From the IMG/VR virus record IMGVR_UViG_3300025872_000001: DNA of 64,000 nt; one strand, 5' to 3'. The position numbers and the translations under genes are program-made. The notes beneath the pieces were generated by a model, which saw nothing but the letters and a program-made list of their open reading frames with translations, was not told the origin of the DNA and did not search any database. Each line of letters starts with the position of its first letter. Within the stretch, counting starts at the first letter, position 1. The stretch is from a virus. Below are positions 14,908 to 47,700 of the stretch, piece after piece.

Positions 14908-15843
14908 ATGAAACGTTTTGCTGAACTAGTCGGGCAAGAAGATGTCAAGAAGAAGTTGGGGTTTTACCTCGACGCCTTCTCTAAGACCCAGAAGTTTCCC
15001 TTCCTCCTGCTGACGGGGGCGAAGGGAATGGGCAAGACCGAATTCGCCAAGGAGACTGCGCGTGGCATTAATGCCAAGGACGGTGCGCCTCGCTCTTTCC
15101 TTGAAATCAACTGCGGCACGATCAAGAACGCGCAAGTGTTCTTTGAGCAAGTGTTCGCCCCAGTGATTCAAGGCAACGAGGTTACTGTTCTATTGGACGA
15201 ATGCCATGCGCTCCCCAAGGACTTGATGACTGTATTACTTTCTGCTTTCAATACCGAGAAGGCAGATGTGAAGCAGATCACTTGGCGCGACGGTATGTAC
15301 GAGTTCAACTTCAAGTTGCAAAGTTTTATGCTTGCGACTACTGAGGCTGACAAGTTGTTCGCGCCGCTCAAGGATCGCCTCACGCCTGTTGACTTCCAGC
15401 CGTACACAGTTTCGGATGTTGCTAAGATCGTAGAGAAGATGCTCCCTGACATCGCTTTCAAGGGTGATGTCTTGGAGAAGATCGCCTCCACAGTTCGTGG
15501 CAATGCTCGCTCTTCCGTGCAGCGTGCAAAGCAGATTGAACTCTACTGCGAGACCAAAGCAATCAAAGAGTTTGGTGTCAAAGAGTGGACTGATCTTTGC
15601 AACAAGATTGGTATCAACGCATCTGGTCTTAACAACACCGAGATTCAAATCCTGCGCGCTCTTAAAGATCGTGGGGACTGCTCGCTCAATATGCTGTCGG
15701 CCATTACTGGCATGAGTCGCTCCTCGCTCCAGCGTGACGCTGAAATCTTCCTGCTCCAGAAGGGCTACATGAAGATCGAAGGCTCCCGCAAGCTAACCGC
15801 CGCAGGGTCCAAAGTCTTAGAGAATCTTCAGAAGAAGGCTTGA
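14908..15843 (+). CDS. ruvB: RuvB-like Holliday junction branch-migration AAA+ ATPase
   Basis: F.ELVGQE.VK, Walker A GAKGMGKT, Walker B LLDECH, ATT...L.APLKDR, C-terminal winged helix. Confidence 0.8.
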   Translation: MKRFAELVGQEDVKKKLGFYLDAFSKTQKFPFLLLTGAKGMGKTEFAKETARGINAKDGAPRSFLEINCGTIKNAQVFFEQVFAPVIQGNEVTVLLDECHALPKDLMTVLLSAFNTEKADVKQITWRDGMYEFNFKLQSFMLATTEADKLFAPLKDRLTPVDFQPYTVSDVAKIVEKMLPDIAFKGDVLEKIASTVRGNARSSVQRAKQIELYCETKAIKEFGVKEWTDLCNKIGINASGLNNTEIQILRALKDRGDCSLNMLSAITGMSRSSLQRDAEIFLLQKGYMKIEGSRKLTAAGSKVLENLQKKA

Positions 15844-15846
15844 CAA

Positions 15847-16017
15847 ATGAAACACAAAGTCGCAATATGGATAGAAGGTGGCATGATACAGGGGATTCGA
15901 TCCTCCGTAGACATTGACATAGAGATTATTGATATCGATTGGGAAGGCGTAGACAGGGACGCTGCTGAACAGAAATGGGAACAATATCAAACTGAATTAC
16001 CTTTTAACACTGTATGA
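15847..16017 (+). CDS. small hypothetical protein
   Basis: 56-aa ORF read manually (MKHKVAIWIEGG...). Confidence 0.55.
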   Translation: MKHKVAIWIEGGMIQGIRSSVDIDIEIIDIDWEGVDRDAAEQKWEQYQTELPFNTV

Positions 16018-16175
16018 AAACATTCCGAGTACAATTCGTTGACGAAATCACTGCCAAGACAGAAGAAGATGCATACGAAGTTCTGCTTCGTTATCTCCGT
16101 GACTGTGCAGAGTATGGGGATGCTACCGCATTCCAATTTGAGGAAGTTGAACACAAAGAATATCAGACACATTAA
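16014..16175 (+). CDS. small hypothetical protein
   Basis: 53-aa ORF read manually (MKTFRVQF...); ATGA overlap. Confidence 0.55.
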   Translation: MKTFRVQFVDEITAKTEEDAYEVLLRYLRDCAEYGDATAFQFEEVEHKEYQTH

Positions 16176-16179
16176 AAAT

Positions 16180-16195
16180 TGTTCCACGTAGAACA
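16180..16195. promoter_or_regulatory. parS-like palindrome
   Basis: TGTTCCACGTAGAACA, one mismatch from TGTTCCACGTGGAACA. Confidence 0.6.
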
Positions 16196-16497
16196 TTTGT
16201 TGCGAAACCTCCCTACTTGCTTATAAGTGGGGAGGAAACGTAACATTAACGACTTAGTCTTAAATAAATAAAAGGTGAATCAATAACGAGTTAATAGTAA
16301 ATAAATAACATATGGTAGGATTGGGGAAAATTCCCCAGCCGGGCCTGGCCCGGATTCACGAACCCTTGGCACGCAATGAGTTACAAAACTCGACAACCCG
16401 GATTGGTGAAGCGCTGGTATTCAACGAGTTACACCGGGCCTGGCCCGGCTCTATATAGCGCTATAGTCAGCACTATATAGGCGGGGGGTTAGTTATA

Positions 16498-16824
16498 TCA
16501 TCCCTCGTAGTGAGCGTATGTATATACAGTCGGGAGACTGACCGCAAACTTTGCGGCGATCTCGTACAGGTGCAGGGCGCAATCCCTGCGGCGAGTGCGG
16601 CGGGGAAGCTTCTGAGCATAGAACGCAATCTTCCAGCGCTCATCTTCATTCAGCCAGCCGTTGCGCCTGTATAGAGTCACGGCAGACTCACGCGCAAACA
16701 TCTTCTCGGCTTCCTCCGGTGTCTTGTCGCTGTATTCTTCAAGATTCTTCAGAGCCTTTTCGATTCGCTTCTGTTGAATCTGATAACGGGTACGCATCCA
16801 CTCCAACTTGGTTTTGGTATTCAT
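16498..16824 (-). CDS. hypothetical protein, possible C-terminal HTH
   Basis: ATG at 16824; LYEIAAKFAVSLPTVY resembles an HTH. Confidence 0.55.
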   Translation of the reverse strand: MNTKTKLEWMRTRYQIQQKRIEKALKNLEEYSDKTPEEAEKMFARESAVTLYRRNGWLNEDERWKIAFYAQKLPRRTRRRDCALHLYEIAAKFAVSLPTVYTYAHYEG

Positions 16825-16924
16825 CGCAATTTTTTTTTGAGCAAAACAAACAAAAGTATTAAGAAAAGCGCAATTTGATAAAGCAAGGGAAAAAAGGGGG
16901 GCGCTGTCACCGCCCCCCGTTTGA

Positions 16925-17689
16925 TCAGACCGCAACCTCCGGTTTGATGTCAACCGTCAAGTTCAGACCCGCGAAGGGGTCGAGGATGCTGTGCAGGGCT
17001 TGGCTACGCTTGGGCAGCGCGATCAGGTTGCCCTTGTACACCTCGGTGAAGGCGTTGTGCAGGGACCAGAGGTTGCGCGGGGCAAACTCCTCATGCGCGG
17101 GCTTCTCCCATTGGTCGAGAACGTCGGCAATCATCGTCTTGCCAACCGCGCCAGCGCGGTAGCCGCGCAGGATGAGGGTGCCAGCCTCGTCATCGGTGAG
17201 AGGGGTCGCCTCGTACTTGGCAACGCGAGCCTCCTGCTTGTTCCACATATCGGAGAGCGCGCCGATTCCACGCGAAACGATTTGCGGCAGATCGCGCAGG
17301 ACGTTGGTCGTGTGCTTGCGGGCAAACACGATCTCGTTATGGAAAACGAGATTGGAGCAGACAAACGGCGCATTGCCAGCGCAGAAGCCAGCAGGGAAGC
17401 ACTTGTCATGCGAGTTGCGCAGACCGACAACGGTGCCAGAGGAACCCTGCTTGCCCATGTCGATCTCGAAAAGACCGAAGTAACGCTGACCGAAACGGGC
17501 AGTCGTGTGCAGTTCCTGCTTGATCGCAAGACCCGCAACCTTCATCTGCTCGCGAAAGATCGAAACGAGGTTCGCGTGAGGGATCGGCTGATACGTCTCG
17601 GTGGCATTGGGTGTCGGAACCTTGGCGAGATCGGCAAGGCTGATTTGGGAATTGTCTGCGCCGCAGACATGGAGGTTTACGCTGTTCAT
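16925..17689 (-). CDS. DUF932/DUF945-family protein
   Basis: TETYQPIPH, VGLRNSHDK.FPAG, FVCSNL, RKHT, NLWSLHNAFTE motifs. Confidence 0.8.
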   Translation of the reverse strand: MNSVNLHVCGADNSQISLADLAKVPTPNATETYQPIPHANLVSIFREQMKVAGLAIKQELHTTARFGQRYFGLFEIDMGKQGSSGTVVGLRNSHDKCFPAGFCAGNAPFVCSNLVFHNEIVFARKHTTNVLRDLPQIVSRGIGALSDMWNKQEARVAKYEATPLTDDEAGTLILRGYRAGAVGKTMIADVLDQWEKPAHEEFAPRNLWSLHNAFTEVYKGNLIALPKRSQALHSILDPFAGLNLTVDIKPEVAV

Positions 17690-17743
17690 TTTTTTATTTG
17701 GTTGAGGTTGACGAAAAGAAGTTTGGAGAGATTTGCGCAGAGT

Positions 17744-17935
17744 TCAAGAACTTTTTTGATTAATTTTCGCGGCGAATTCGGCGGCGTTGCGATCCGTTTC
17801 GTCGGCCCTTTCGTTGAGCCACTTCTGGAACGCTTGGTGGTCCTTGATCTCGACACCAGGAATCTTGTGATAGAAGGCGATGCTGGTGAGAGCGCCGCGC
17901 ATCGAACCGTACATGATAGGATAATCGTTATTCAT
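17744..17935 (-). CDS. hypothetical protein (leaderless)
   Basis: TTGCAA...TAGACT promoter 7 nt before ATG. Confidence 0.65.
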   Translation of the reverse strand: MNNDYPIMYGSMRGALTSIAFYHKIPGVEIKDHQAFQKWLNERADETDRNAAEFAAKINQKSS

Positions 17936-18142
17936 CGCGAGCAGTCTACAAGGTGCAGTTACACTTGCAAACTTTTTTTTGCGTTAAATTGAATTTTTTT
18001 TCGCGGAGCGTGGAACATTTTTGGCGTCGTGGAACATTTCATTTTGGAATGAACTCTCTTTTCGGCTTGACGGCCAGGCCGGGCCAGGCCCGGTTTGATA
18101 CAGCACCCTATATAGAGCGCTATATCAACCAGACTTTATATA

Positions 18143-18475
18143 TTAAAATGAGCGTCGAGCAAGAAGATTATTCTCTACATAATCCTTTGCATCCTTGAGC
18201 GAAGTGTTGGGGACAAGAGTGCGGACCGCTTTGATCAGAGCAATCTTGTTGGGGCAAATGCCCTTGCCAGCGCGATACTCTTCTTGAATGTTCATAGCTT
18301 CATCGTAAATCGATGCAATTGCATTGCGAACTTCGAAATCGAGAAGCGAATTGATCTTCGGGATCGAAGGGACAATAGGCTGTGACACAATGTCGATTTC
18401 GATCTGATGATGCTCCAGCCCAGTTTTGGCGGCGAAAGCATCGATGATGTCGGTTCTGTTGATGACGAGTTTCAT
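18143..18475 (-). CDS. protein with ribosomal L7/L12 C-terminal-like motif
   Basis: NKIALIKAVRTLVPNTSLKDAKDYVE matches the L7/L12 CTD pattern KI..IK.VR....L.EAK..VE. Confidence 0.6.
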   Translation of the reverse strand: MKLVINRTDIIDAFAAKTGLEHHQIEIDIVSQPIVPSIPKINSLLDFEVRNAIASIYDEAMNIQEEYRAGKGICPNKIALIKAVRTLVPNTSLKDAKDYVENNLLARRSF

Positions 18476-18479
18476 AGTA

Positions 18480-18692
18480 TTATGATTTGAGGAAGCCGTG
18501 ATGTTTGAGGAGATTTTCATACTCTGCAAGCAATTTCTTTTTGTCGCGAGTGCGGGAACTGCACATTTTGCGAACATGGTTGGAAACAGAACCGCGTGAA
18601 TTAGTCATGCCCAGAGTTTCAAGCTTAAGCGCGCTTCTGAAAGCGAGCAAGCGATATGCGAGAATAGCGGAGGGAGTGTCAGCAATGATCAT
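18480..18692 (-). CDS. hypothetical protein
   Basis: ORF in leftward unit. Confidence 0.65.
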   Translation of the reverse strand: MIIADTPSAILAYRLLAFRSALKLETLGMTNSRGSVSNHVRKMCSSRTRDKKKLLAEYENLLKHHGFLKS

Positions 18693-18927
18693 AGTAGTAA
18701 ATTGGAGCCGCGCTGCTCATCTCCTATATGATGAGTGATTAGGGAGTCTTCACGGCTTTGGTTTCTCCCCGTCAGCAAGAGAGAGAATGACAGAGTGTGC
18801 GCGGTGTGCAACATTTATTTTGAATTTATTTTCAGTTGCGAGAGAGATTTTGCTTGACACGCACAGCCGGGCCAGGCCCGGATGCCAAGCCGCAACCAAA
18901 AAGTTACAGCAAGGCTCCGATTTTTTA

Positions 18928-19443
18928 TTAGCTTTCTTCCTCGACTTCCTCCTCCCAACTAAACTCGTCAATTGCAATCTTTTTCCATGCATCAGTTGAA
19001 GAGTCGTCTTCGTGTTCTCCGGTTTGATACTCGCCACCTTCCCAAATGCTGTAGCCAACAAAGCCCATTCCCTCTTCAAGATAAGCAAGCTTGAATTTTA
19101 ATTCGGGGAACTTGGCTGACAATGCTTGAATCGCCATTTGAGGCGGCGACCATGCAGTTGTAAAGCACAGCACCATCAACGTCGGGTCGTACTGCTGGAT
19201 GTCAACTTCATCAATGTCCCACTTGGTTCCCCAATTCTGAACGCGCCAATCATACCAATCATACGCGCCATACTTCTCCTTGAATTCATTACGTTTGGCG
19301 TGCTTGTCGTTGAATGGTTCAGAGTCTTTCAACTCTTCGGGCATTGGGAGAATTTTATTGAACGAGAAAACGTCACCCATCCACTCATTAAAGCGCGTGA
19401 AGTCACCGCTGACATACAGGTTATTGGCACACCAGTTAGGCAT
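18928..19443 (-). CDS. DUF1281/YubB ferredoxin-like (Api92-like) protein
   Basis: MPNWC.N.L, WYDWR..NWGTKWD, F.TAWSPP motifs. Confidence 0.85.
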   Translation of the reverse strand: MPNWCANNLYVSGDFTRFNEWMGDVFSFNKILPMPEELKDSEPFNDKHAKRNEFKEKYGAYDWYDWRVQNWGTKWDIDEVDIQQYDPTLMVLCFTTAWSPPQMAIQALSAKFPELKFKLAYLEEGMGFVGYSIWEGGEYQTGEHEDDSSTDAWKKIAIDEFSWEEEVEEES

Positions 19444-19448
19444 AGGAT

Positions 19449-19631
19449 TTAATCGTTTAGGTTATTATCGTCGCAATAGATTGTCATTCCCTTGTCGTAA
19501 CCAGCCTTGTAATCGCTGCCAGCGTTGGGGCTGTTCATTTTTTTCACAGCCTCGTAATCGTATGAGCCTTTGTTGTAAGCATCAAGCACACCGCGCAGGT
19601 ATGCGTAGGTAGGTTCAATCATTGGTTTCAT
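19449..19631 (-). CDS. hypothetical protein
   Basis: ORF in operon; Y..GY motifs. Confidence 0.6.
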   Translation of the reverse strand: MKPMIEPTYAYLRGVLDAYNKGSYDYEAVKKMNSPNAGSDYKAGYDKGMTIYCDDNNLND

Positions 19632-19987
19632 ATTTGAGCAAAGATTCTTTTCCCGTAGATGGCAACGTAACGGGCATTTTTAATTGGCGACCCATCCTTT
19701 GCAAGCACAAAAGTGGAATACTTGTAGGGATTGTAAGTCACCTCCACAGAATTCTCGGGGATAACTTGGCTGATTGCTGTGCGGAGATAATTGTCCCAAT
19801 CGCCGCGCACCCATGCGTGAACATTCTTGCGCTTGTTCTTCAGCACACGCTGCCGCCCCGCCTCACTAACGTGGAACGTGGGGTTGTCGAGGGTAATCGC
19901 AGGGGCGTGGGCAATCACTTTCCCATTGACACGAATCGACAGCATGTGTTTATGCAGGTTGAAGTAGACTTCCGTTTTGATTTTCAT
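19628..19987 (-). CDS. conserved phage hypothetical protein
   Basis: VYFNLHK...GRQRVL..KRKNVHA...YNPYKY..F pattern. Confidence 0.75.
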   Translation of the reverse strand: MKIKTEVYFNLHKHMLSIRVNGKVIAHAPAITLDNPTFHVSEAGRQRVLKNKRKNVHAWVRGDWDNYLRTAISQVIPENSVEVTYNPYKYSTFVLAKDGSPIKNARYVAIYGKRIFAQI

Positions 19988-20202
19988 GATTCTTGTTCAG
20001 CAAACATTTCTTCCCAGACATGGGGAGGAGTACCAGTCATGATGAACTCGCGCTCATCAGCGGTCAAGAAAAAAAATGCTTCTTGAATCAGCGCGCCAAG
20101 ATCGCATTTCATCAAAGCCGTGGCGTATTGCTCTTCAGTCATCGTGGGAAAATCCATCGTGTAGATTTGCCCGTTGAATTGGCATCGTTTGGTTAGTTGC
20201 AT
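19984..20202 (-). CDS. conserved phage hypothetical protein
   Basis: LIQEAF..LTADEREFIMTG.PP..WEEMF pattern. Confidence 0.75.
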   Translation of the reverse strand: MQLTKRCQFNGQIYTMDFPTMTEEQYATALMKCDLGALIQEAFFFLTADEREFIMTGTPPHVWEEMFAEQES

Positions 20203-20291
20203 GGTTAAGAGTGTGAATAAAAAATCCGTGAGTGCAACAGCAAAAGAAGAAACAACAAATAAATAAATACGAAATAATGCTTGACAACCCG

Positions 20292-20397
20292 CCGGGCCTG
20301 GCCCGGAATCCTCACCTGGTGCACCTGGCGAATAAAAAATCTGCGCTCTCGCGAAATTTTCGGTTTTCTGCCGGGCCTGGCCCGGATTATATAGCGC
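20292..20397 (+). repeat. ~105-bp double-palindrome element, copy A (copy B at 22540-22650)
   Basis: palindrome-AATC..CCTGGTGCACCTGGCGAATAAAAAAT...TCTCGCGAAATTTT...-palindrome-ATTATATAGCGC; 79-bp period in both copies. Confidence 0.9.
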
Positions 20398-20508
20398 CTA
20401 TATAGCACTATACAATCACTATATAGTTTCGGTGGTGTTTAATGAAGGGCAACGAAACCTCCCCATGCCGCAAGCTCTCCTTGCGTACTATTCCACCGAA
20501 AAAATTAT

Positions 20509-20736
20509 TTAGTTAGCATAAGCCAAGCGGCCTTCTGTAGTCACTAGAGGGCGGCGACCTTCGGCTCCCTCTAGATACTCTATAACCTCCGCGCTAGTGG
20601 CGAGGCGCATATAAGAGTTAGGCCACCCCACAAGATCTTCCCGATGATAAGAGGTCGCGCATACACGCGGACCCGTTGCAATCACGCGCTCCACTCGGCG
20701 CGTCCTTGTATTATACCACAGTTGACCGTTTTTCAT
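20509..20736 (-). CDS. hypothetical protein
   Basis: ATG overlapping the upstream stop. Confidence 0.6.
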   Translation of the reverse strand: MKNGQLWYNTRTRRVERVIATGPRVCATSYHREDLVGWPNSYMRLATSAEVIEYLEGAEGRRPLVTTEGRLAYAN

Positions 20737-21239
20737 TTGTAGAAGATATGATGATTGATTTGAACCGTCTTGACAAGCTTTTTCGCCCAACTCGGGGAAA
20801 CTTTTTCGGCGTGATAATGCGTCGCGCCGTTGGTGTAATTCGTTTTCTGATTAACTAAAGCGAGAGCCTGTGACCATTTCGGATGGCGCTTTGCTTTCGC
20901 GATTCCGTCCTCGACGTTTTTTCCATTCCAACACGAAAATTGTTTCGGCGCGAGAATGACGGCAAGTTCCGTTTTATTCTTGGCGCGATTCGCGATCACC
21001 TCGCGAACCGCCGCCATTGCGCGGGGATCAGCCTCCCCACCCGCTTCCAAGATCAGAGTCGCCGCCACAATCTCCCCACGCGAGACGGTGACCGTGGTGG
21101 TCTGCCCCCGCAGCGATAAGACGGCCCCAAAAAGCAGCGTCAGCAGTAACAACCGAAAAACCGCGCAAAGCAAGATGCTTTTCAACAAGCTCGGTGTTCC
21201 ATTCATATTTTTGCAGGAGGTATGCGAATTGTCTTTCAT
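20733..21239 (-). CDS. cell-wall hydrolase, SleB/Hydrolase_2 family, with N-terminal signal/anchor
   Basis: LEAGGE...AVREVIANR...VILAPKQFSCWN...GATHYHA...PSWA...NHHIFYK. Confidence 0.85.
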   Translation of the reverse strand: MKDNSHTSCKNMNGTPSLLKSILLCAVFRLLLLTLLFGAVLSLRGQTTTVTVSRGEIVAATLILEAGGEADPRAMAAVREVIANRAKNKTELAVILAPKQFSCWNGKNVEDGIAKAKRHPKWSQALALVNQKTNYTNGATHYHAEKVSPSWAKKLVKTVQINHHIFYK

Positions 21240-21248
21240 TTACTGATT

Positions 21249-21437
21249 TCATGAGGTGACCTTGGTGGCGTATTCTTCTGCGCGCTTTTCCATCTCAACA
21301 AGCTCGCGGTCAATCTTGGCGCGGAATTCCGCGACAGCCTTGCGGCTCATATTCACGGGGAGGTAAAGGTCGATACTCTTGAGGAGGCTTTCCATGCCGC
21401 CCTTGAGGTAGATTTCTTTGAGTTCGTTTTTGTTCAT
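21249..21437 (-). CDS. hypothetical protein (leaderless)
   Basis: TTGACG...CACACT promoter 7 nt before ATG. Confidence 0.65.
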   Translation of the reverse strand: MNKNELKEIYLKGGMESLLKSIDLYLPVNMSRKAVAEFRAKIDRELVEMEKRAEEYATKVTS

Positions 21438-21482
21438 GAGAGAGAGTGTGGAGATTTTTTTTGTTTCGTCAACAACTTTTTT

Positions 21483-21668
21483 TCACTTTTTGAACCAGCG
21501 GAAAACGGTGCGATTCGCGGAGGAAAATTCGACGATGTACTCCGTGAAGGTAGCGGGGACAATTTGGAAAACGTCGTTTTTCATGGCGCGAGCTTGGCAC
21601 GCTTTCCAAGCGAGTTCGCAACCCGAACCCTGCGCGATGATGATTGAAGACCAGCGGTAGTTTTTCAT
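21483..21668 (-). CDS. hypothetical protein (leaderless), paralogue of 22665-22859
   Basis: TTGACT...CATTCT-N7-ATG; Y.W.S.IIA.G..C..A....QA.AM...EYIV...RWF.K. Confidence 0.7.
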   Translation of the reverse strand: MKNYRWSSIIIAQGSGCELAWKACQARAMKNDVFQIVPATFTEYIVEFSSANRTVFRWFKK

Positions 21669-21871
21669 GAGAGAGAGAATGACGAAAAAATCCGTGAAGT
21701 CAAATTTTTTTTCAGATTTTTTTTTGGAGCGTGGAACATTCTGCGCGTCGTGGAACATTTCATTTTAAATTGAAAGTTCATTTTCGCTTGACGGCAGGGC
21801 GCCGGGCCTGGCCCGGATTTATATAACACTATATAAAGGGATGTAGAGTCCCTATATAGAGAGTCTATATA

Positions 21872-22141
21872 TCACTCGCCCATACTATAGTGGTCATCAT
21901 AGGCGGACCCGTAGTCCTCGTCGGTGCCGAGGCCAGCAGACGCGAGGGCATCCGCATCCGCCTCCGCATCGGTGCGGAAGCCGTCAAACGGCTCCTCCTC
22001 GTTGGCGGCGTTATAGGACGCCTGTAGGGTGTCGATGACCGCATCAAGCTGCGGCGCGTTCATCGCGTCGGCGGCATCGCGCAGCGCGGCGAGAACGAGG
22101 GAGGCTTCGGTGAGGGTGAGGGCGAGGTTGATCTGGTTCAT
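21872..22141 (-). CDS. acidic hypothetical protein (leaderless)
   Basis: TTTACC...TACTTT-N7-ATG; DADALASAG.GTDEDYG motif. Confidence 0.7.
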   Translation of the reverse strand: MNQINLALTLTEASLVLAALRDAADAMNAPQLDAVIDTLQASYNAANEEEPFDGFRTDAEADADALASAGLGTDEDYGSAYDDHYSMGE

Positions 22142-22204
22142 GGGGATAAAAGTAAGAAAAAATTCGTGCAGGTAAAGAAAAAAGTGAAAGAAAAAAAGGG
22201 GCGC

Positions 22205-22375
22205 TCAGAGCGCCCCCGAATCGACAAGGGCCGCGAGGCGATCCCAAGCGGCGTCAACTTCGTCGTTGATGGCGTTGACCATATCAAACCAAGCGTGCAG
22301 ATCGGCGCGGTCAGCGTCGGTCAGATTGGCGTACTCGGCGGCGGCGTTGCTGGGGAGGGAGTTGATGAGGTTCAT
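22205..22375 (-). CDS. small acidic protein (leaderless), not in ORF track
   Basis: 56 aa MNLINSLPSNAAAEYANL...; TTGACC...CATTCT-N7-ATG; terminator GGGGCGCTC/GAGCGCCCC overlaps the stop. Confidence 0.65.
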   Translation of the reverse strand: MNLINSLPSNAAAEYANLTDADRADLHAWFDMVNAINDEVDAAWDRLAALVDSGAL

Positions 22376-22664
22376 GAGAGAGAGAATGAAACTTTTTTCG
22401 GTGCGGTCAACTTTTTTTTCAGATTTTTTTCAGATTTTTTTTCAGAGTGTGGAACATTTCGCGCATCGTGGAACATTTTCGTGGAACATTTTTTTCTGCG
22501 TGGAACATTTTTTTTTCTTGACACGCGCCTGGCGCGGGGCCGGGCCTGGCCCGGAATCTTAGCCTGGTGCACCTGGCGAATAAAAAATTTACCGTCTCGC
22601 GAAATTTTGGGTTTTTCACCGGGCCTGGCCCGGATTTATATAGCGCTATATAAACCCTTATATA

Positions 22665-22859
22665 TTATTTACGAAACCAGCGCACAATTGTTATATGGCC
22701 CTTCGGTATAACAACTATATATTCCTCGCCCAACGCTTTAGCAATTTCGAAGTGGGTGCCACTCATTGCGTTTGCTTGCTGGGTAGCGAAGGCCGCAGCG
22801 CAATCCGCGCCGCGAGCAATTATCTGAGACGCCCAACCGTAGTGCATTTGTTTTTTCAT
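22665..22859 (-). CDS. hypothetical protein (leaderless), paralogue of 21483-21668
   Basis: TTGCGC...TAAGGT-N6-ATG. Confidence 0.7.
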   Translation of the reverse strand: MKKQMHYGWASQIIARGADCAAAFATQQANAMSGTHFEIAKALGEEYIVVIPKGHITIVRWFRK

Positions 22860-22970
22860 GCTGCTACCTTACCAGAAAAACGGCCCCGCGCAAGTTTTTT
22901 TTCGCATTTTTTTCGATTTTTTTTCGCATTTTTTTCTTGCAAGTGTGCGCGCTGCGTGTATCTTTCCCGC

Positions 22971-23669
22971 ATGAAACTCAATCTCCTGTCAGTAGGTGCA
23001 GATGCCAAGACAAGCAAGGGCGAGGCTTTCGGATGGCTGACGGCTATTCTCTACCTTGCGCCAGCGCGCCAAGCTGGGCGCGGCGAAGTTTGCACGCATC
23101 GGTCAGCTGGATGCACGCTTGCGTGCCTCTACACGGCGGGGCGTGGTAAGATGTCCAACGTGCAGCAAGCGCGCATTCGGCGCACTCAATTATTTTTCGA
23201 TGACTTCGCGACCTTCAAGGCTCTTCTCTTCGCTGACATCCGCGCATTCGTTGCAAACTGTGAAAAGCAAGGGATGCGCGCTTGTGTTCGCTTGAACGGT
23301 ACAAGCGACATTGCGTGGGAGCGGCTGGGCGTGTTCGCTGCGTTCCCTTCCGTGCAGTTCTATGACTATTCGAAGAGTCCGATTCGTGCCTTGCAATTTG
23401 CCAAGGGCGCAATGCCGAGCAATTACCATTTGACTTTCTCGCGCAGCGAAAGCAACGAAGCGCAAGCAATCGACGTTCTCCGCGCAGGTGGCAACGTGGC
23501 GGTTGTGTTCGCGAACTACCTTCCCCCAACGTGGGAAGGGTTTCCCGTGGTGAACGGTGACGAAAGCGACTTGCGTTTCCTTGACAAGCGCAACGTGGTG
23601 GTTGGCCTCAAGGCGAAAGGCGCAGGCAAAAAAGATGCAACTGGGTTTGTCGTGACCGCAACGCTGTGA
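22971..23669 (+). CDS. GP88-family (Fe-S/radical-SAM-like) protein, leaderless
   Basis: C.....GC...CL..AGRG, VRLNGTSDI, FYDYSK, YHLTFSRSE, GD..DLRFLD, VVGLKAKG; TTGCAA...TATCTT-N6-ATG at 22971. Confidence 0.75.
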   Translation: MKLNLLSVGADAKTSKGEAFGWLTAILYLAPARQAGRGEVCTHRSAGCTLACLYTAGRGKMSNVQQARIRRTQLFFDDFATFKALLFADIRAFVANCEKQGMRACVRLNGTSDIAWERLGVFAAFPSVQFYDYSKSPIRALQFAKGAMPSNYHLTFSRSESNEAQAIDVLRAGGNVAVVFANYLPPTWEGFPVVNGDESDLRFLDKRNVVVGLKAKGAGKKDATGFVVTATL

Positions 23670-27275: not shown

Positions 27276-27509
27276 TTATTTTTTGGTTAATTTGAATGTC
27301 CCGTCAGATTGGTCGGTCCAAATGATTTCGTCGCCAACCTTCCAACCTAAACCATCCATCAAGACTTGAGGAATCTCAATGAATTGATCGCCGTTGTCAA
27401 GAGTTTTTACTGGAACAGTAGCTTTTTTAGCAAAAATTTCATCCCAGTTTTTTTGGAATTCCTCTTGAGAGACTGAGAATGGTCTGGGCTTAGATCCTTT
27501 ACCGTTCAT
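27276..27509 (-). CDS. AbrB/MazE-like DNA-binding protein
   Basis: IEIP..LMD.LGWKVGDEI.W swapped-hairpin motif. Confidence 0.6.
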   Translation of the reverse strand: MNGKGSKPRPFSVSQEEFQKNWDEIFAKKATVPVKTLDNGDQFIEIPQVLMDGLGWKVGDEIIWTDQSDGTFKLTKK

Positions 27510-30733: not shown

Positions 30734-31105
30734 ATGGCAAGCGTTTTCTGTACAAATTGTGGAGGCAAGCATGAATATGTTGGATTTGCCCCAAACTTTT
30801 GTTCAAAATGTGGAAGTCCCATGAACGGGAAGGTTTCGACTCAATTACAGAAAAAGCCAGTTAGAACTGCAAGTTCTGAAGATATAGAGGATGAATCAGA
30901 AGACAACACAAGTGTCGACGAACTTCCCGATATCGATAAGCTTGATGTAGAAATCGAAATGGAAGGGGGCTTTAGGGCTTTTAATTTAGAAGATTTATCG
31001 CGTAACCCTCAAGCTGGAGCAAGGAAATTCGCTCCAAAAAGAGTTGGTGGGATAGACAGCTTGTCCCCCACCAAATATGGAAGCACAAAGGCGCGAGAAG
31101 ATTAA
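30734..31105 (+). CDS. zinc-ribbon protein
   Basis: FCTNCG...NFCSKCG; acidic tail. Confidence 0.7.
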   Translation: MASVFCTNCGGKHEYVGFAPNFCSKCGSPMNGKVSTQLQKKPVRTASSEDIEDESEDNTSVDELPDIDKLDVEIEMEGGFRAFNLEDLSRNPQAGARKFAPKRVGGIDSLSPTKYGSTKARED

Positions 31106-31787
31106 ATACGAAGACAAGCAAGAAGTTATCGATAGGATTATAGAAAAGCACAGATATATCTGGCAGCTTAAAGCTATTGCTTGGATGGATTATGAGGATG
31201 TTGCTCAAATCATTCGTTTTCACATTTCAAAAAAATGGAAAATGTGGAAGCAAGATCGCCCACTTGAACCTTGGATTGCGCGTATTACCGTAAACCAGAT
31301 CAAGAATCTTCTGCGCAATAATTACTCTAATTATGTTCGCCCTTGTTTATCTTGTAAGTTCAGCATGGGCAACGAACCTCCAGCTTGTTCAATAACTCCA
31401 AGCGGAAAACAATGTGGCGAATGCCCCTTGTATAGAAAATGGGAAAAGACAAAAAAGTGTGCATATGATGTGAAGCTTTCTGTCTCTATAGAAAATCATT
31501 CAGAGTCTGTACAGGGGATGAAAGATTTAAACTTTGATGTTTTATCAAGCGCACAGAGACTTCACGAAGAAATGAAACATCGTTTGGCGCCCAAACAATA
31601 TAAAGTTTATTCAAGGCTTTATATCGATGGCGCAGATGAGGAAAAAGTTGCAATGGAAATGGGATACAAAACGAATGAAAAGGGTAAGAAAGCTGGCTAT
31701 AAACAAATTAAAAATCTTAAAAAGTTATTTAAACAGATAGCGACTAAAATCTTACAAGACGAGGATATTTTAGGTGGCCAACAATAA
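31077..31787 (+). CDS. ECF-like RNA polymerase sigma factor with Cys-rich insertion
   Basis: region 2-like DYEDVAQ...LEPWIARITVNQIKNLLR; region 4-like L.PKQYKVY...EEKVAMEMG; CLSC...C...CGEC between them. Confidence 0.65.
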   Translation: MEAQRREKIKYEDKQEVIDRIIEKHRYIWQLKAIAWMDYEDVAQIIRFHISKKWKMWKQDRPLEPWIARITVNQIKNLLRNNYSNYVRPCLSCKFSMGNEPPACSITPSGKQCGECPLYRKWEKTKKCAYDVKLSVSIENHSESVQGMKDLNFDVLSSAQRLHEEMKHRLAPKQYKVYSRLYIDGADEEKVAMEMGYKTNEKGKKAGYKQIKNLKKLFKQIATKILQDEDILGGQQ

Positions 31788-32838
31788 AATAAGTTTCAGT
31801 GACGAAGACAAAAAGAGGATTATGGAAATCGCCAAGGAGTTTCCAGATCTAAATACTATTACGCGCAAATTTTTTAACGATGAAAATCTTGACGGCAGAA
31901 CAAAGCAAGGAATTGCGATCAGATCTTTGCTTGCCTCTAATAAAATACAATACAAAACATCTAAGTACGAAAAAGTTGGCGAACTCCCTCTCACTCCAGA
32001 ACAAGAACAGTTCATTGAGGATCAGGCTGCTAACGGAATCTCGGCACTAAGAATTGCAGAGCTTCTTTATCCAGACCGCCCAATCTCTGCAATGGGATTG
32101 GAACACAGAACTGTTGCCGCTCATATCAGAAATTCTGGTTGTGAAAATAATGCCGTATCTGATGATGCGATGTTTGTAAAATACCAAACACCCCGATCAT
32201 TAGAGAGAGTAATTAATAGAATTAATGAAGCCACGGGAGAGAAAATAGATAAAGATAGGCTCACCAGACACCATAAAGTATGCGCTGAGAAACTCGCCAT
32301 CAATTTGTCTAACTCAAGATTTCAAAAAATTATTAATTGTTATACATCACAAGATGATAGGAATATATTTGAGCAAGAATTTATCCGCATGACATGGGAC
32401 AAGCCTGATTTGACCGCTGATGAGGTTAATTTGTACATGAACGTTTGCAAAGAAATCATTAATTTAGAAACCACTTCAAGGCATTTAGATAAGTTGAATA
32501 AAATGTTTGAGGAAACTCAAGAACAGAATGAAATGAGCATTCGTTTGGCCGAAATCATCAAGGCTAAAAGCAGCGAGTATCACCAATGCGAAGGCAGAGT
32601 GGAAAGTTTAATTAAAAAATTGCAAGGCGATAGGCGCGAAAGAATTTCATCTAGGCAAAAAGAAAACGCCTCTATTCTTTCTATTGTCCAACTCTTTCAA
32701 GACGAAGAAGAGCGCGCTAATATGATTAAAATTGCAGAGATGCAAAAGTCACTTGTCACTGAAGAAGGTAAAAAAATGGAAACTATGGTGGAGTGGAAGG
32801 CTCGTATATTAGGAATATCATTAGAAGATGCAGTCTGA
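31774..32838 (+). CDS. hypothetical helical protein in packaging module (small-terminase candidate)
   Basis: HTH-like N-terminal part plus coiled coils; lies before the terminase. Confidence 0.45.
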   Translation: MANNKISFSDEDKKRIMEIAKEFPDLNTITRKFFNDENLDGRTKQGIAIRSLLASNKIQYKTSKYEKVGELPLTPEQEQFIEDQAANGISALRIAELLYPDRPISAMGLEHRTVAAHIRNSGCENNAVSDDAMFVKYQTPRSLERVINRINEATGEKIDKDRLTRHHKVCAEKLAINLSNSRFQKIINCYTSQDDRNIFEQEFIRMTWDKPDLTADEVNLYMNVCKEIINLETTSRHLDKLNKMFEETQEQNEMSIRLAEIIKAKSSEYHQCEGRVESLIKKLQGDRRERISSRQKENASILSIVQLFQDEEERANMIKIAEMQKSLVTEEGKKMETMVEWKARILGISLEDAV

Positions 32839-33805
32839 CAATTCCAACTGTTGCAAAATATGCCACAGTTCCTTTCCTTCCGAAAGGAGCCTACATGCGC
32901 ATTTAAAAAAGCACAAGATTGGTCTTGATGAGTATTATCTTGCACATTATCCTAGAAAAAACCTGCTAACAGGCACTTATTTGCAATTTAAGGACAAGGA
33001 GTCTTATTTTGAAAAGGACTTTGAAAACAGAAATCAGCTTTTGAGATGGTGTGAGATAGAATCGCCAGAAACTGTTAAAGCTCAAATTAAAAAAATGCTG
33101 GCTTATAGAATAAAAAGCAAAGATTTAAAATATGCGCCATGTCATTTAGAGTTGGAAACTAGTGAAATGCCGACAGTTGATTTGTACAAGAAACATTTTG
33201 GGTCTTATTCTAATGTTTGTGCAGAAATAGGAATTGAGCCTATGTTTAAAAAGAGTTTGCCCAAAAAGTTTTACGAAGATTATTCTAATATTAATATATT
33301 TGTTGATACCAGAGAACAGCAGCCTTTAAGCTTTAAAAGCGAAAAGAAAGTAAAGTTAGATTTTGGCGATTATACCGCTAGCGGTTCAAATTATACAAAA
33401 ACATTCGTAGATAGAAAGTCAGAATCTGATTTTAAAGGTACATTAGTTGGTGAAAATCTGGATAGATTTAGGCGTGAACTGCAAAGATGCAAAGATATGG
33501 AATGTTATTTATTTATTGTGGTAGAATCTACTTTAGAACGTATAAGTAGTAACAACGACTTTACTCCTCATAAGGCGAATTTAAAATTTATATATCATAA
33601 TATGAGATTATTGCAGCATGAGTTTGCAAAAAGCTGCCAATTTATATTTTCGGGTAACAGAACCAATAGTGAAATTATTATTCCAAAGCTAACTGCCATT
33701 GGTAGCGCACTTTGGGATGTAGACGTTCAATATTTTATAGACAAGAACTCATCATGGCTTGGATCGAAGGAAACCAAAAAAGAAAAAGCTTATTCCGTAA
33801 CGTAA
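32828..33805 (+). CDS. C2H2 zinc finger plus ERCC4/XPF-type nuclease
   Basis: CKIC...LHAHLKKH; VDTREQ, GDY, VDRKSESD, IVVE motifs. Confidence 0.75.
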   Translation: MQSDNSNCCKICHSSFPSERSLHAHLKKHKIGLDEYYLAHYPRKNLLTGTYLQFKDKESYFEKDFENRNQLLRWCEIESPETVKAQIKKMLAYRIKSKDLKYAPCHLELETSEMPTVDLYKKHFGSYSNVCAEIGIEPMFKKSLPKKFYEDYSNINIFVDTREQQPLSFKSEKKVKLDFGDYTASGSNYTKTFVDRKSESDFKGTLVGENLDRFRRELQRCKDMECYLFIVVESTLERISSNNDFTPHKANLKFIYHNMRLLQHEFAKSCQFIFSGNRTNSEIIIPKLTAIGSALWDVDVQYFIDKNSSWLGSKETKKEKAYSVT

Positions 33806-44745: not shown

Positions 44746-47700
44746 ATGGGTAAGTATTATCTAGGCACAGGTAATCAACAGATTAATTTCCAAGTCGTTG
44801 ACTCGACGGGAGTTATAAATGATTTAAATTTAAGCGGCCTGTATCTAAGTATCACTGGCAAAGCCACCGATGCTGATAAACTAGATAATTACGATAGTTC
44901 ATTTTTTAGAAACGCGGCAAATTTAACTGGAACATACACAGGATCAGTTAGCGGTAAAGCTGCTGATTCTGAACTTCTTGATGGTCTTGATAGTTCTTAT
45001 TTTTTAAATGGCGCGAATATTACTGGAACTGTTGCCTTAAGCGGAACGTTTACAGGTTATTATACTGGCGCATTCAGTGGTACTATCACCCATACTGATT
45101 CGATTACATTTCACTCTGGATTAGGAATTAATCCTGATCCTGCGGAATTAAGTTGGGAAGATGGGGTAGGCACAATGAATCTTGGCCTTAAAGGAGGCAA
45201 TGTTGATTTGCGTGTTGGCTTACAAAATTATGAGTATGTAACAAATCGTACTGCATCTACAATTTCAAAAGGTTCAGTTATTTATGTTAGTGGCGCGCAA
45301 GGTAATCGCCCATCAATTTCTTTAGCTCTTGGAGCAGCAGATACTACTTCAGCAAATACATTTGGTTTGGCCGCTGAAGATATCGCTTCGATGGCAGACG
45401 GTTATGCTATCACAAATGGCTTGCTCACTAATCTTAATACAACTGGATTTGCAGAAGGCGCAGCCCTTTATCTTTCACCAACAGTTTCTGGCGCGATCAC
45501 TTCAACTAAACCACAAGCTCCACAGCATAGTGTATTAGTTGGTTTCTGTGTTCGTTCACACCAGAGCGCGGGTGAGATTCTCGTTAAAATTCAAAATGGT
45601 CTTGAGATTGATGAGCTTCACGATGTTAGAATATTAAACAAGCAAAATAATGATATTATTAGGTATCATGCGCCTTCTGGCGTTTGGTATAATAGCGATA
45701 CACTGGCGATTAATGGAACTGGCGCGAATTATATTTCTGGAGATTTAGGAATTGGTATCGCTTCGCCAAGTGCAAAGCTTCATATTTTTGGCGCAGATAA
45801 AAGACAGATTATTACTTCGACAACAGACAATGCGGCGCTTGTTCTTGGTCAGTGGGACGGCACAACAAATCGCATTGAATCTTCTACAAGAAAACTTTTA
45901 TTAACATCTTATGCTAATGGAATTTCATTAGGCATCAATGGATCTGAAAATGTACACGTTAGCACAAGTGGATATTTAGGAATTGGAACAACAAGTCCAT
46001 TAACAACATTAAATTTATCTATTTCTGGGGGAAACGGTCCGGTATATCAAACATTCACTGATACTACAAACGCATATCATCACGGATATGTTGGGAAAAA
46101 CGGTGGCGGACTAGTATTTGGATTTTCAAGTCAAAATGGAAGTTTTTCCACCGATGAAAAGATGCGGATTACAACATCGGGTAATGTTGGTATTGGAACA
46201 ACCTCTCCTGGATATAAACTTGATATCCAAGGAGGATCAATTAGAGTTCTTGATGCCGCTGGCCCAGTTATTAATTTATCCGATAATTCAACTAGAAATT
46301 GGGACATTGGATTAAACGCTACAACTGACGCTTTCTATATTAGAGATGTTGTAGCAGCTGTCACCAGAATGACAATTAATACTTCTGGTAGCACGACGTT
46401 TGATGGCGAACTCACACTCATTGGTTCAAAATTGGCCTTTACCGATGACGGAACAAATATTAACGCAACGGTGACGAGTCGAAGACTTCAACTTGTTGCA
46501 ACTGGAAGTTCTGTTGTAACTGGCTACAATACCGATTTCTATTTCTCAAATGAGACATCTGTTGCGAAATATAATGGCAATGTTGGTATTGGCATAACAA
46601 ATCCCACTAACAAATTAGAAATTGCGACAGGAAATTCTGCCACAACTGGTATTAGAGTTAGAGACTCTGCTAACGGTGTTTGGACAGATATATACAGAGC
46701 AACTATAAAATTTTTTGGTGGGGGAGGAGTTATTGATACAAATGATACAACAGATGCAATAGATATAAGACAAGCTGGTAATAGCAGATTATTTATAGCG
46801 CAATCAAATTCAACATATAATGGAGTTTCAGTTGGAGGTTGGGTTGGTATAGGAACAAGCGCACCTTCGCAACGTTTAGAAGTTTTAGGCGATTTAGATA
46901 TGGCTGGTCTCAAAGTAACGACGACGACTGGCAGAGGAAGAATAACCGTTGCTTCTCAAACTATATCATATAGTTCATATTTAGAATTAAATAGTGGCGA
47001 AAGTCAAATTGCTTTCTTGGATGGAAATTATAATTCTAATCGTTTAAGAATCGCTACAAATCGCACTGGTGCATATATTGCATTTGAGACAGACGCGCAA
47101 AGTGAAAAAATGCGCATTACCAGTTCTGGCAATGTTGGTATAGGAACAACAAGTCCTACATCAAAATTATATGTCAGTGGAGACATTGCTGCAAATGTAG
47201 ATAATTCGCTTGGTGTTAAACTAAATAGAAGTGCCACAAATGTTTGGAATGGTATAGGATACTCCACGGCAAATTCAACCAAATGGTTCGTCGGATTGAG
47301 AGAAAGCGGGGATGACAATTTAAGATGGTACAATTACACCAATACAAGTGAAAAAATGGTTTTAACGGAAGCTGGAAGTCTTGGTATTGGTACTACTACT
47401 CCAACTTATAAACTCCATGTTGTAGGAGATGCCAGAATTGGCACAAATGGACAACGCGTATATTTATTTGATGATGGTAATGCTCATATACATTCTGGTT
47501 CTGGGCCACTTTGGTTAAATGCTGAAGATGCAAGTGGTATATATATTAATAATCAAAACAACGGTAGCGTTTATTTGACTAATGGAACTGGAAGAGTAGG
47601 CATCGGAACCACATCAGTATCATATAATCTTGAAGTAGCTAAAGCGTCAGCTGGAGCAACATTTGCAGTTAATGCTGATATGTCTGCCGCTGGAGAAGCT

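Follow-up and report, generated by a model that had tools for sequence, protein, structure and literature searches.

A recurrent 15-bp palindrome at the junctions of shuffled accessory gene cassettes in an uncultured freshwater phage: a candidate PeSL-like regulatory module

We analyzed a stretch of 64,000 nucleotides (the window) of the IMG/VR virus record IMGVR_UViG_3300025872_000001, which comes from a large (∼130 kb) uncultured tailed phage of freshwater (lake) origin. Part of the window is an island of leftward, self-contained transcription units, punctuated at six junctions (J1 to J6) by a perfect 15-bp palindrome, here called the dyad (Table 1). The GC content of the island is 47-52%, versus 35-40% in the late/structural region, a difference already noticed in the sequence-only reading, an earlier note on this DNA. 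Island genes run leftward and match the Pfam families DUF932, DUF1281_C, L5 gp82, and Hydrolase_2, with third-codon-position substitution counts in agreement; an L7/L12-C-like protein and several small open reading frames (ORFs) are also present. Two genes that had been taken for paralogues (21483-21668 and 22665-22859) are indeed related (42% identity, E = 5e-16). On the left side of J1, the rightward ORFs 15847-16017 and 16014-16175 are real genes, judging from third-position substitution counts. The island is hyperplastic, and its small accessory genes probably counter host defences or help in taking over the host.

The dyad pattern CCGGGCCWGGCCCGG, i.e., CCGGGCC(W)GGCCCGG, has nine exact matches in the 64 kb, all between 16.3 and 22.7 kb, in agreement with the initial count of nine palindromes at six junctions and none elsewhere; no exact match arose in 100 dinucleotide-preserving shuffles of the window. 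Palindromes are spaced by 738 to 1,645 bp, and the members of doubled sites lie 79 or 95 bp apart (spacer of 64-80 nt), the J4 spacer (20307-20370) being 89% identical to that of J6. On the + strand, the first part of a junction is a leftward promoter with an A/T tract; next come two to four direct GTGGAACAT repeats, a T tract with CTTGAC(A/G), and a GC-rich linker of 5-16 nt, which leads to one or two copies of the palindrome. A TATATAGCGCTATATA-type AT palindrome follows, and after it the stop codon at which the next leftward gene ends. The companion motifs named in the sequence-only reading (a rightward TTGAC, GTGGAACAT repeats, and TATATAGCGCTATATA boxes) are all present. The constant order that it described holds at J2, J4, J5, and J6 but not at J3, which has no TATATA box, a degenerate repeat, and another hairpin (18890-18920) in the box position, or at J1, a convergent junction without a leftward promoter. 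CTATATA occurs 22 times in the window, versus 7 expected, with 18 of the 22 matches within 16451-22721; eight of the nine exact GTGGAACAT matches fall within 18010-22508. No −10 element lies 16-18 nt after the rightward TTGAC(A/G) hexamers, and a split promoter spanning the dyad (TTGACA as −35, TATATA as −10) was rejected because its spacer is variable, 23-34 bp.

Several other features of the junctions resemble known elements. GTGGAACA half-sites form direct repeats with 13- to 21-bp periods upstream of leftward promoters (18010-18037, 21731-21758, and 22449-22508), and a distant relative (L293) has a perfect TGTTCCACGTGGAACA around position 19300. ParB-family proteins (PF02195), which bear on these repeats, are absent from five dyad-bearing contigs (partial, 40-70 kb). 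The convergent gap of J1 contains a hairpin, CCTCCCTACTT-GCTTAT-AAGTGGGGAGG (16204-16236), and a word related to it, GAAACCTCCCC, recurs at 20452. NrdR-box and T7-type-promoter readings of CACTATATAG were dropped as half-site or partial resemblances only, as was a sigma-54 reading of the recurrent TTGGCAC(G), in which the −12 GC is missing. No known RNA family in Rfam matches the junction elements.

Seven unit starts share a common design: TTGACx or TTGCAx, 16 nt, one of CATTCT, CACACT, TAGACT, and TAAGGT, and then 6-7 nt to the ATG, with A tracts before. By sequence, these island promoters are of the sigma-70 type. Since the predicted −10 lies only 6-7 nt before the ATG, the island mRNAs would be leaderless. 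A distant relative (G001) has the same promoter design with a perfect TATAAT. From the type of promoter only, the units may be early ones. Behind the J3 promoter, a leaderless mini-ORF of 29 codons with a TTG start (18689-18778, − strand) overlaps the start of the gene at 18480-18692 in an ATGA; at the point of this mini-ORF, L206 and L205 are longer by ∼470 bp.

The same dyad was found in about a dozen related IMG/VR contigs, with 3-9 copies each, always clustered on the right-hand side of the RuvB gene. The window and five relatives have all their copies within one island of 6-7 kb; the motif is region specific rather than evenly spread in every dyad-bearing contig, as had been proposed from the window. 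Arm conservation was counted at 74 sites with ≤1 arm mismatch from 11 related arrays. The arms are perfect at 64 of the 74 sites, and any base is tolerated at the centre (T 36, A 23, C 10, G 7). All ten single-mismatch sites break a pair, and none is compensated. One such variant, CCCGGCC.., which would weaken the RNA hairpin (−4.6 versus −10.3 kcal/mol), persists in five genomes, three of which have it at the same junction.

The sequences around the dyad differ by clade: TTGACA/TATATA, TTTTACAA...TTGTAAAA, TTTGCG/TTGCAA, or GTGGAACA. In clade A (this window and L205-L208), TTGACA stands to the left of the dyad and TATATA boxes to the right. In clade B (L210-L213), the dyad is embedded in a 55-bp inverted repeat, TTTTACA...TTTTACAA-dyad-TTGTAAAAAA..TGTAAAA, after which comes in some cases a canonical terminator hairpin and in others an operator-like palindrome centred on ACGT, plus TTGACA. 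TTTGCG/TTGCAA repeats surround the dyad in L214, and GTGGAACA repeats lie on both sides of it in L217. The dyad occurs in tail-to-head and tail-to-tail (J1) settings and also, at position 4225 of L211, between divergent promoters, a place that transcripts would not be expected to traverse.

Three nearly complete relatives (G001, G002, and G003) lack the dyad and have analogous arrays at the same genomic place. G001 (L202, 5100-14800) has eight inverted-repeat modules of ∼75 bp centred on GACCCC-NNN-GGGGTC, with a variable 3-nt loop; G003 (L203, 3500-13000) has nine modules built on GTTGATTTTCAAC repeats; and G002 has degenerate CCCGGCCNGG cores between TTTGCA and TGCAAA. A further clade has (GGGGTA)n-type repeats at the junctions. 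The presence of other repeat modules at the same place in dyad-less relatives indicates that a repeat-rich junction with a GC core is an old architecture. Judged from these sequences, the GC core is clade specific, and the dyad is frozen within its own clade. Modules of the distant relatives G001, G003, and L293 also include GTTGATTTTCAACGACTTAC pairs around a CGCGGGGCGCG core and tandem AAAATTTTCCTACCCCTACCCC units (in L293, at 17500-19300).

The sequence-only reading suggested either recombination or cassette shuffling at the palindrome, and comparison of relatives did reveal gene gain, loss, and reordering. Clustering of ORFs from 13 arrays placed the GP88, SleB, DUF1281_C, L5-gp82, and DUF932 genes in differing cassettes and orders. 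In L207 and L210-L213, GP88 stands alone in a cassette with a dyad on each side. The DUF932 cassette is inverted in L210 relative to L211. The 95-bp unit of J1a plus spacer is absent in L087 and L205, where the left flank of J1a is joined directly to the right flank of J1b; likewise, J6a plus spacer is absent in the closest relative (L206/L039), and the J4 junction of L205 has a single dyad copy. In L206 and L205, the DUF1281_C gene is swapped for an unrelated segment of ∼220 bp, with the left breakpoint 52 nt from the centre of the J3 dyad, and a 344-bp gene beside J1 is an indel among relatives.

Seven pairs of close relatives were compared, and the 160 ends of their collinear BLAST blocks were taken as breakpoints. 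Of these, 23% lie ≤60 bp from a dyad centre, versus 12% of random positions, so that breakpoints are enriched about twofold at the module. Peaks are seen at ±7 (the dyad edge, reflecting doubling or un-doubling), +26 to +30 (the edge of the clade B inverted repeat), and +51 to +61 (the module edge or gene stop). Only ∼10% of the ends lie ≤30 bp from a dyad centre, and many further breakpoints are ordinary gene boundaries. That most breakpoints lie at module or gene edges, not inside the palindrome, is a signature of general recombination between repeated junctions. The shuffling part of the earlier proposal is supported, with differing orders, one inversion, flank types that reassort across the dyad, and precise indels of dyad plus spacer; the part that invoked an integron- or REP-like site-specific system is not supported.

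Together, these data are best explained by a repeated regulatory junction, similar to the PeSLs (promoter-early stem-loops) of T4-type phages, which also serves as portable homology for cassette shuffling and whose dyad is probably read by a protein; we give this reading a probability of about one-half. Each unit would be transcribed from its own sigma-70-type promoter, 6-7 nt before the start codon, into a leaderless mRNA. The multi-part module between units, of which the dyad CCGGGCC-N-GGCCCGG is the sole invariant part, would be regulatory DNA that marks where one unit stops and another begins. Being repeated, the module would offer portable homology for general recombination and gene conversion, and recombination between modules could add, delete, relocate, duplicate, or invert cassettes. 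The phage RuvB homologue and endonuclease VII may supply recombination functions; the RuvB homologue belongs to the general recombination machinery and is not a site-specific recombinase. The dyad itself would be an operator or boundary site common to all units and bound by a dimeric protein.

PeSLs, known from the T4-type phages RB49/phi1, T4/PST, and KVP40/nt-1, combine a sigma-70 promoter, an AT-rich tract, and a GC stem-loop and lie in hyperplastic regions; they have been shown to promote and terminate transcription and mediate the insertion, deletion, and replacement of ORFans by homologous recombination, including via mini-circles (Arbiol et al. 2010, PMC2839356; Comeau et al. 2014, PMC4122927). 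Both systems have a repeated intergenic combination of sigma-70-type promoter, AT-rich tract, and GC-rich stem-loop in a hyperplastic region of small accessory or ORFan genes, and close relatives in both differ by indels, replacements, and relocations whose joints lie at the elements, with no dedicated recombinase apparent. In some PeSL subclasses, the stem-loop lies in the upstream AT-rich region, matching the placement of the dyad (PMC2839356). The differences are also considerable. This phage is not a T4-type myovirus, its terminase being nearest to the Bacillus Basilisk type; its module is longer (∼150-300 bp) and has at least four motif types; one stem-loop is invariant across diverged genomes, whereas PeSLs have variable polyG/polyC stems; the dyad is ∼100 bp upstream of the promoter and lacks a U run in the gene direction; and the predicted mRNAs are leaderless, unlike the Shine-Dalgarno-led mRNAs of PeSL phages.

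Dispersed families of early-region operators offer a second precedent. The conserved inverted repeats of phiC31 and the stoperators of mycobacteriophage L5 are such families; these phages are temperate, and the reader is the immunity repressor. As in these phages, a short conserved site is present here in many copies in the intergenic gaps of one gene set, and a single phage protein reading it would govern all units. Unlike there, neither an integrase nor a repressor was found, and the asymmetric, orientation-dependent L5 sites differ from the symmetric dyad. A presence/absence profile for a dyad-specific gene pointed to the block 25.3-27.7 kb, which includes a 77-aa protein with an AbrB fold. 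All dyad-bearing contigs that were examined in full encode this protein, and three dyad-less genomes lack it. Its homologues carry PF04014 and an invariant N-terminal motif, MNGKGSKPRP..NWD.IF; the top fold matches of its structural model (pLDDT 68) are MazE, SpoVT, AbrB, and VapB, with weak E-values. On this modelled fold, the 77-aa protein is a weak candidate for the reader of a junction motif, a lead only.

Several observations weigh against the PeSL-like reading. The breakpoint enrichment is only about twofold, and the counted ends are not independent events. Most PeSLs have the stem-loop within the promoter, whereas the dyad is found ∼95-110 bp upstream of the leftward −35. Reassortment of flanks exactly across 15 bp would also fit a site-specific enzyme, and the equivalent GC hairpin of G001 is followed leftward by GUUUUGG and looks like a terminator. 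Finally, on a wider sample, the 77-aa protein tracks the dyad imperfectly: a 45%-identical homologue exists in a dyad-less clade, and one dyad-bearing contig has only the N-terminal motif of the protein.

If the dyad acted only through an RNA or DNA hairpin, it would attenuate, terminate, or insulate transcription or stabilise mRNA ends, in the manner of the PeSL stem-loop, which terminates in reporter tests (PMC2839356). The dyad can indeed fold into an RNA hairpin with a 6-bp stem and a 3-nt loop (−10.3 kcal/mol, with the centre base free); on the + strand, two copies score as terminator-like, with CCCGG followed by ATTTATATA, and clade B reads UUGU after the dyad on both sides. The structural reading keeps weight because G001 has, at the same place, a different perfect GC hairpin with a variable 3-nt loop followed leftward by that GUUUUGG. 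In the gene direction, however, no U run follows the dyad in this window, and a canonical-terminator reading was rejected for that direction. Canonical terminators, with a hairpin and a U run (−17 to −19 kcal/mol), occur separately at 16918-16896, directly after the DUF932 gene, and at 22217-22197, and in clade B, such strong terminators adjoin the dyad. Among the 74 copies, there are no compensatory changes despite diverged surroundings, and a pair-breaking variant is stably kept. Because the gene direction lacks a U run, canonical terminators lie nearby, one site lies between divergent promoters, and sequence rather than pairing is conserved, we favor, with modest confidence, a dyad that is read as DNA sequence by a putative dimeric protein over a mere RNA terminator hairpin; a role through structure only is the less likely account, to which we would give perhaps one chance in several.

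DNA hairpins with a 5- to 7-bp stem and a 3-nt loop serve as promoters for the virion RNA polymerase in the early region of phage N4, and the dyad resembles them in stem and loop size and in its place in a presumed early region. An N4-like hairpin promoter was nonetheless rejected: the dyads lie at the 3′ ends of units, ∼100 bp upstream of ordinary sigma-70-type promoters, and the two giant proteins of ∼2,200 aa (44746-51213 and 54457-61080) are fibres, with no virion-packaged single-subunit RNA polymerase among them.

A dedicated site-specific recombinase, or a nuclease specific for sequence or structure, that acts on the dyad and drives cassette capture, excision, and inversion is rather improbable. 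It is granted some chance because flank types are reassorted so exactly at the dyad: those on its two sides vary independently of each other across the 15 bp, one left flank occurring with three different right flanks, and a GGGGAAAATTCCCC hairpin is found on either side of the dyad. The sequence is invariant at cassette boundaries in every orientation, the [dyad + spacer] indels are precise, and the linker between TTGACA and the dyad is hypervariable, differing in length and sequence at orthologous junctions of ∼93%-identical genomes. The phage also encodes endonuclease VII and a protein with weak ERCC4 and HNH-repeat matches; endonuclease VII, however, is also present in dyad-less G002. Neither tyrosine (PF00589) nor serine recombinases nor HUH (Y1) transposases (PF01797) were found in the Pfam-scanned ORFs of the window, for which this absence had been noted, or in the five partial dyad-bearing contigs. 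A 7-1-7 site is shorter than known recombinase core sites, and the low share of breakpoint ends close to the dyad centre, noted above, does not favor cutting there.

In integrons, attC sites are imperfect palindromes of 57-141 nt recombined as folded single strands, and the cassettes are promoterless and co-oriented. Here too, cassettes are bounded by a recurring palindromic element, and their content and order vary between relatives; however, no integrase was found, the dyad is a perfect palindrome of 15 bp, a promoter is predicted for each cassette, and L210 has an inverted cassette. REP/BIME elements with RAYT differ in their HUH (Y1) transposase partner, absent from the five dyad-bearing contigs. 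There is a slim chance that the dyad is the site of a dedicated nuclease or recombinase, perhaps kin of restriction enzymes recognizing CCGG, GGCC, or CCWGG, and that integron-like exchange takes place at a new type of site with no known integrase.

Such restriction words have a peculiar distribution. The dyad is the tightest overlap of CCGG, GGCC, CCWGG, GGCC, and CCGG. Outside the island, these words are depleted (observed/expected: CCGG, 29/73; GGCC, 55/97; CCWGG, 21/52), and GCGC and GATC are not; the island minus its dyads is depleted as well (CCGG, 4/16), and the 38 kb examined of dyad-less G001 have CCGG at 0/42 and GGCC at 0/57. The nine dyads hold 18 of the 51 CCGG sites in the window. 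Avoidance of CCGG, GGCC, and CCWGG is strong and specific throughout the window and in the relatives L187, L202, and L193. Two accounts come to mind: selection to keep the dyad may be stronger than the pressure to lose restriction sites, or the dyad may have a function connected with enzymes recognizing such words. That the dyad is a decoy, sensor, or methylation-dependent switch on early DNA, and so tied to restriction-modification, is very doubtful: although it consists wholly of words depleted elsewhere, and CCGG and GGCC are absent from the G001 stretch, no C5 methyltransferase was found in nine related records, there is no known mechanism by which uncut restriction sites help a phage, and a GC-only palindrome holds such words anyway with a few per cent chance. 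The earlier idea of a protein-loading or nicking array on the first-injected genome end scarcely merits belief, even with sites that are repeated, perfectly conserved, and confined to one region, as nothing puts the region at a genome end, the dyad is without polarity (centre T 36 versus A 23), and the complete G001 genome (terminal repeats, 133.8 kb) has the equivalent array mid-genome, at ∼64-74 kb.

The phage has no nucleotide match, near or distant, to deposited phages, but it has hundreds of relatives in IMG/VR, on contigs of up to 134 kb. Its large terminase is nearest to those of Bacillus Basilisk-type phages (∼25% identity), and the window also encodes a tape measure protein, rIIA/rIIB, tRNAs, PhoH, and a staphylococcal-type nuclease. 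A host search with the capsid gene in bacterial assemblies returned only mis-binned metagenome-assembled genomes from four phyla. It is unusual to find endonuclease VII, a junction resolvase, together with a RuvB homologue, a branch-migration motor; the window showed no RuvA. Segments of both fibre proteins resemble the mosaic adhesive trimer fibres of Bdellovibrio (8ond and 8ojn), and an S74 intramolecular chaperone domain forms the end of the second. Upstream of the late genes (28.8-62 kb), the DNA is AT-rich and lacks a Shine-Dalgarno sequence, and several of these genes have GTGTAA...TATATAA 10-30 nt upstream.

Table 1. Features of the accessory gene island, its junctions, and other loci in the window
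Feature	Position	Strand	Remarks
GC-rich island of leftward self-contained transcription units	16176-22970	-	Left border, rightward genes ending at 16175; right border, rightward GP88-family gene
Palindrome J1a	16339-16353		Centre T
Palindrome J1b	16434-16448		
Palindrome J2	18079-18093		Centre A
Palindrome J3	18867-18881		Centre A
Palindrome J4a	20292-20306		
Palindrome J4b	20371-20385		
Palindrome J5	21802-21816		
Palindrome J6a	22540-22554		
Palindrome J6b	22619-22633		
AT palindrome boxes (CTATATAGCGCTATAG ... CACTATATAG)	16451-16480		Between palindrome and next leftward stop
Matching AT boxes	18108-18124; 20388-20426; 21819-21871; 22636-22664		
Rightward TTGACG	21788-21793	+	T tract before; 8 nt ahead of J5 palindrome
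Matching rightward TTGAC(A/G) hexamers	18067-18072; 18854-18859; 20281-20286; 22518-22523	+	
Four direct GTGGAACAT repeats	22449-22508	+	parS-like half-sites
GTGGAACAT repeat pairs	18010-18037; 21731-21758		
Near-perfect parS-like palindrome TGTTCCACGTAGAACA	16179-16196		At convergent junction J1
Predicted leaderless promoter TTGCAA-16-TAGACT	17936-17970	-	ATG 17935
Predicted leaderless promoter	20203-20237	-	ATG 20202
Predicted leaderless promoter	21438-21472	-	ATG 21437
Predicted leaderless promoter TTGACT-16-CATTCT-7-ATG	21669-21703	-	ATG 21668; read from sequence, putative function
Predicted leaderless promoter	22376-22410	-	ATG 22375
Predicted leaderless promoter	22860-22894	-	ATG 22859
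Predicted leaderless promoter	22936-22970	+	GP88 ATG 22971
DUF932 gene	16925-17689	-	Pfam and substitution counts
DUF1281_C (Api92-like) gene	18928-19443	-	Pfam
Mycobacteriophage L5 gp82 homologue	19628-19987	-	Pfam
SleB-type cell-wall hydrolase (Hydrolase_2)	20733-21239	-	Pfam
GP88-family gene	22971-23669	+	Closes the array in this window
Endonuclease VII	7279-7635	+	
RuvB homologue, full-length	14908-15843	+	Aligned over RuvB residues 23-308; adjoins island on left; flanks array in all relatives
77-aa protein, C-terminal SpoVT/AbrB (MazE-like) DNA-binding fold	27276-27509	-	Pfam E = 1e-3
Possible phage sigma factor (Sigma70_r2)	31077-31787	+	Weak, E = 5e-5, just under Pfam cut-off; conserved in all relatives
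325-aa protein	32828-33805	+	Weak HNH-repeat, C2H2, and ERCC4-nuclease matches; next to possible sigma factor
Two proteins of ∼2,200 aa each	44746-51213; 54457-61080		Resemble fibre proteins

To our knowledge, no means other than PeSL-type junctions has been described by which lytic phages reshuffle accessory genes along with the signals that control them, and we know of experimental demonstrations only in T4-type phages. The PeSL-like reading would extend the same logic to an unrelated, abundant group of freshwater phages and add several features: one 15-bp palindrome is frozen across genomes in which every other junction motif has changed, each clade has substituted a whole module of its own at a shared genomic place, and the frozen palindrome is built from restriction-site words that are otherwise purged. 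If one protein does read the palindrome, this protein would be an easy pull-down target, and through it the phage would have a master control, or a handle for recombination, over its whole accessory gene set.

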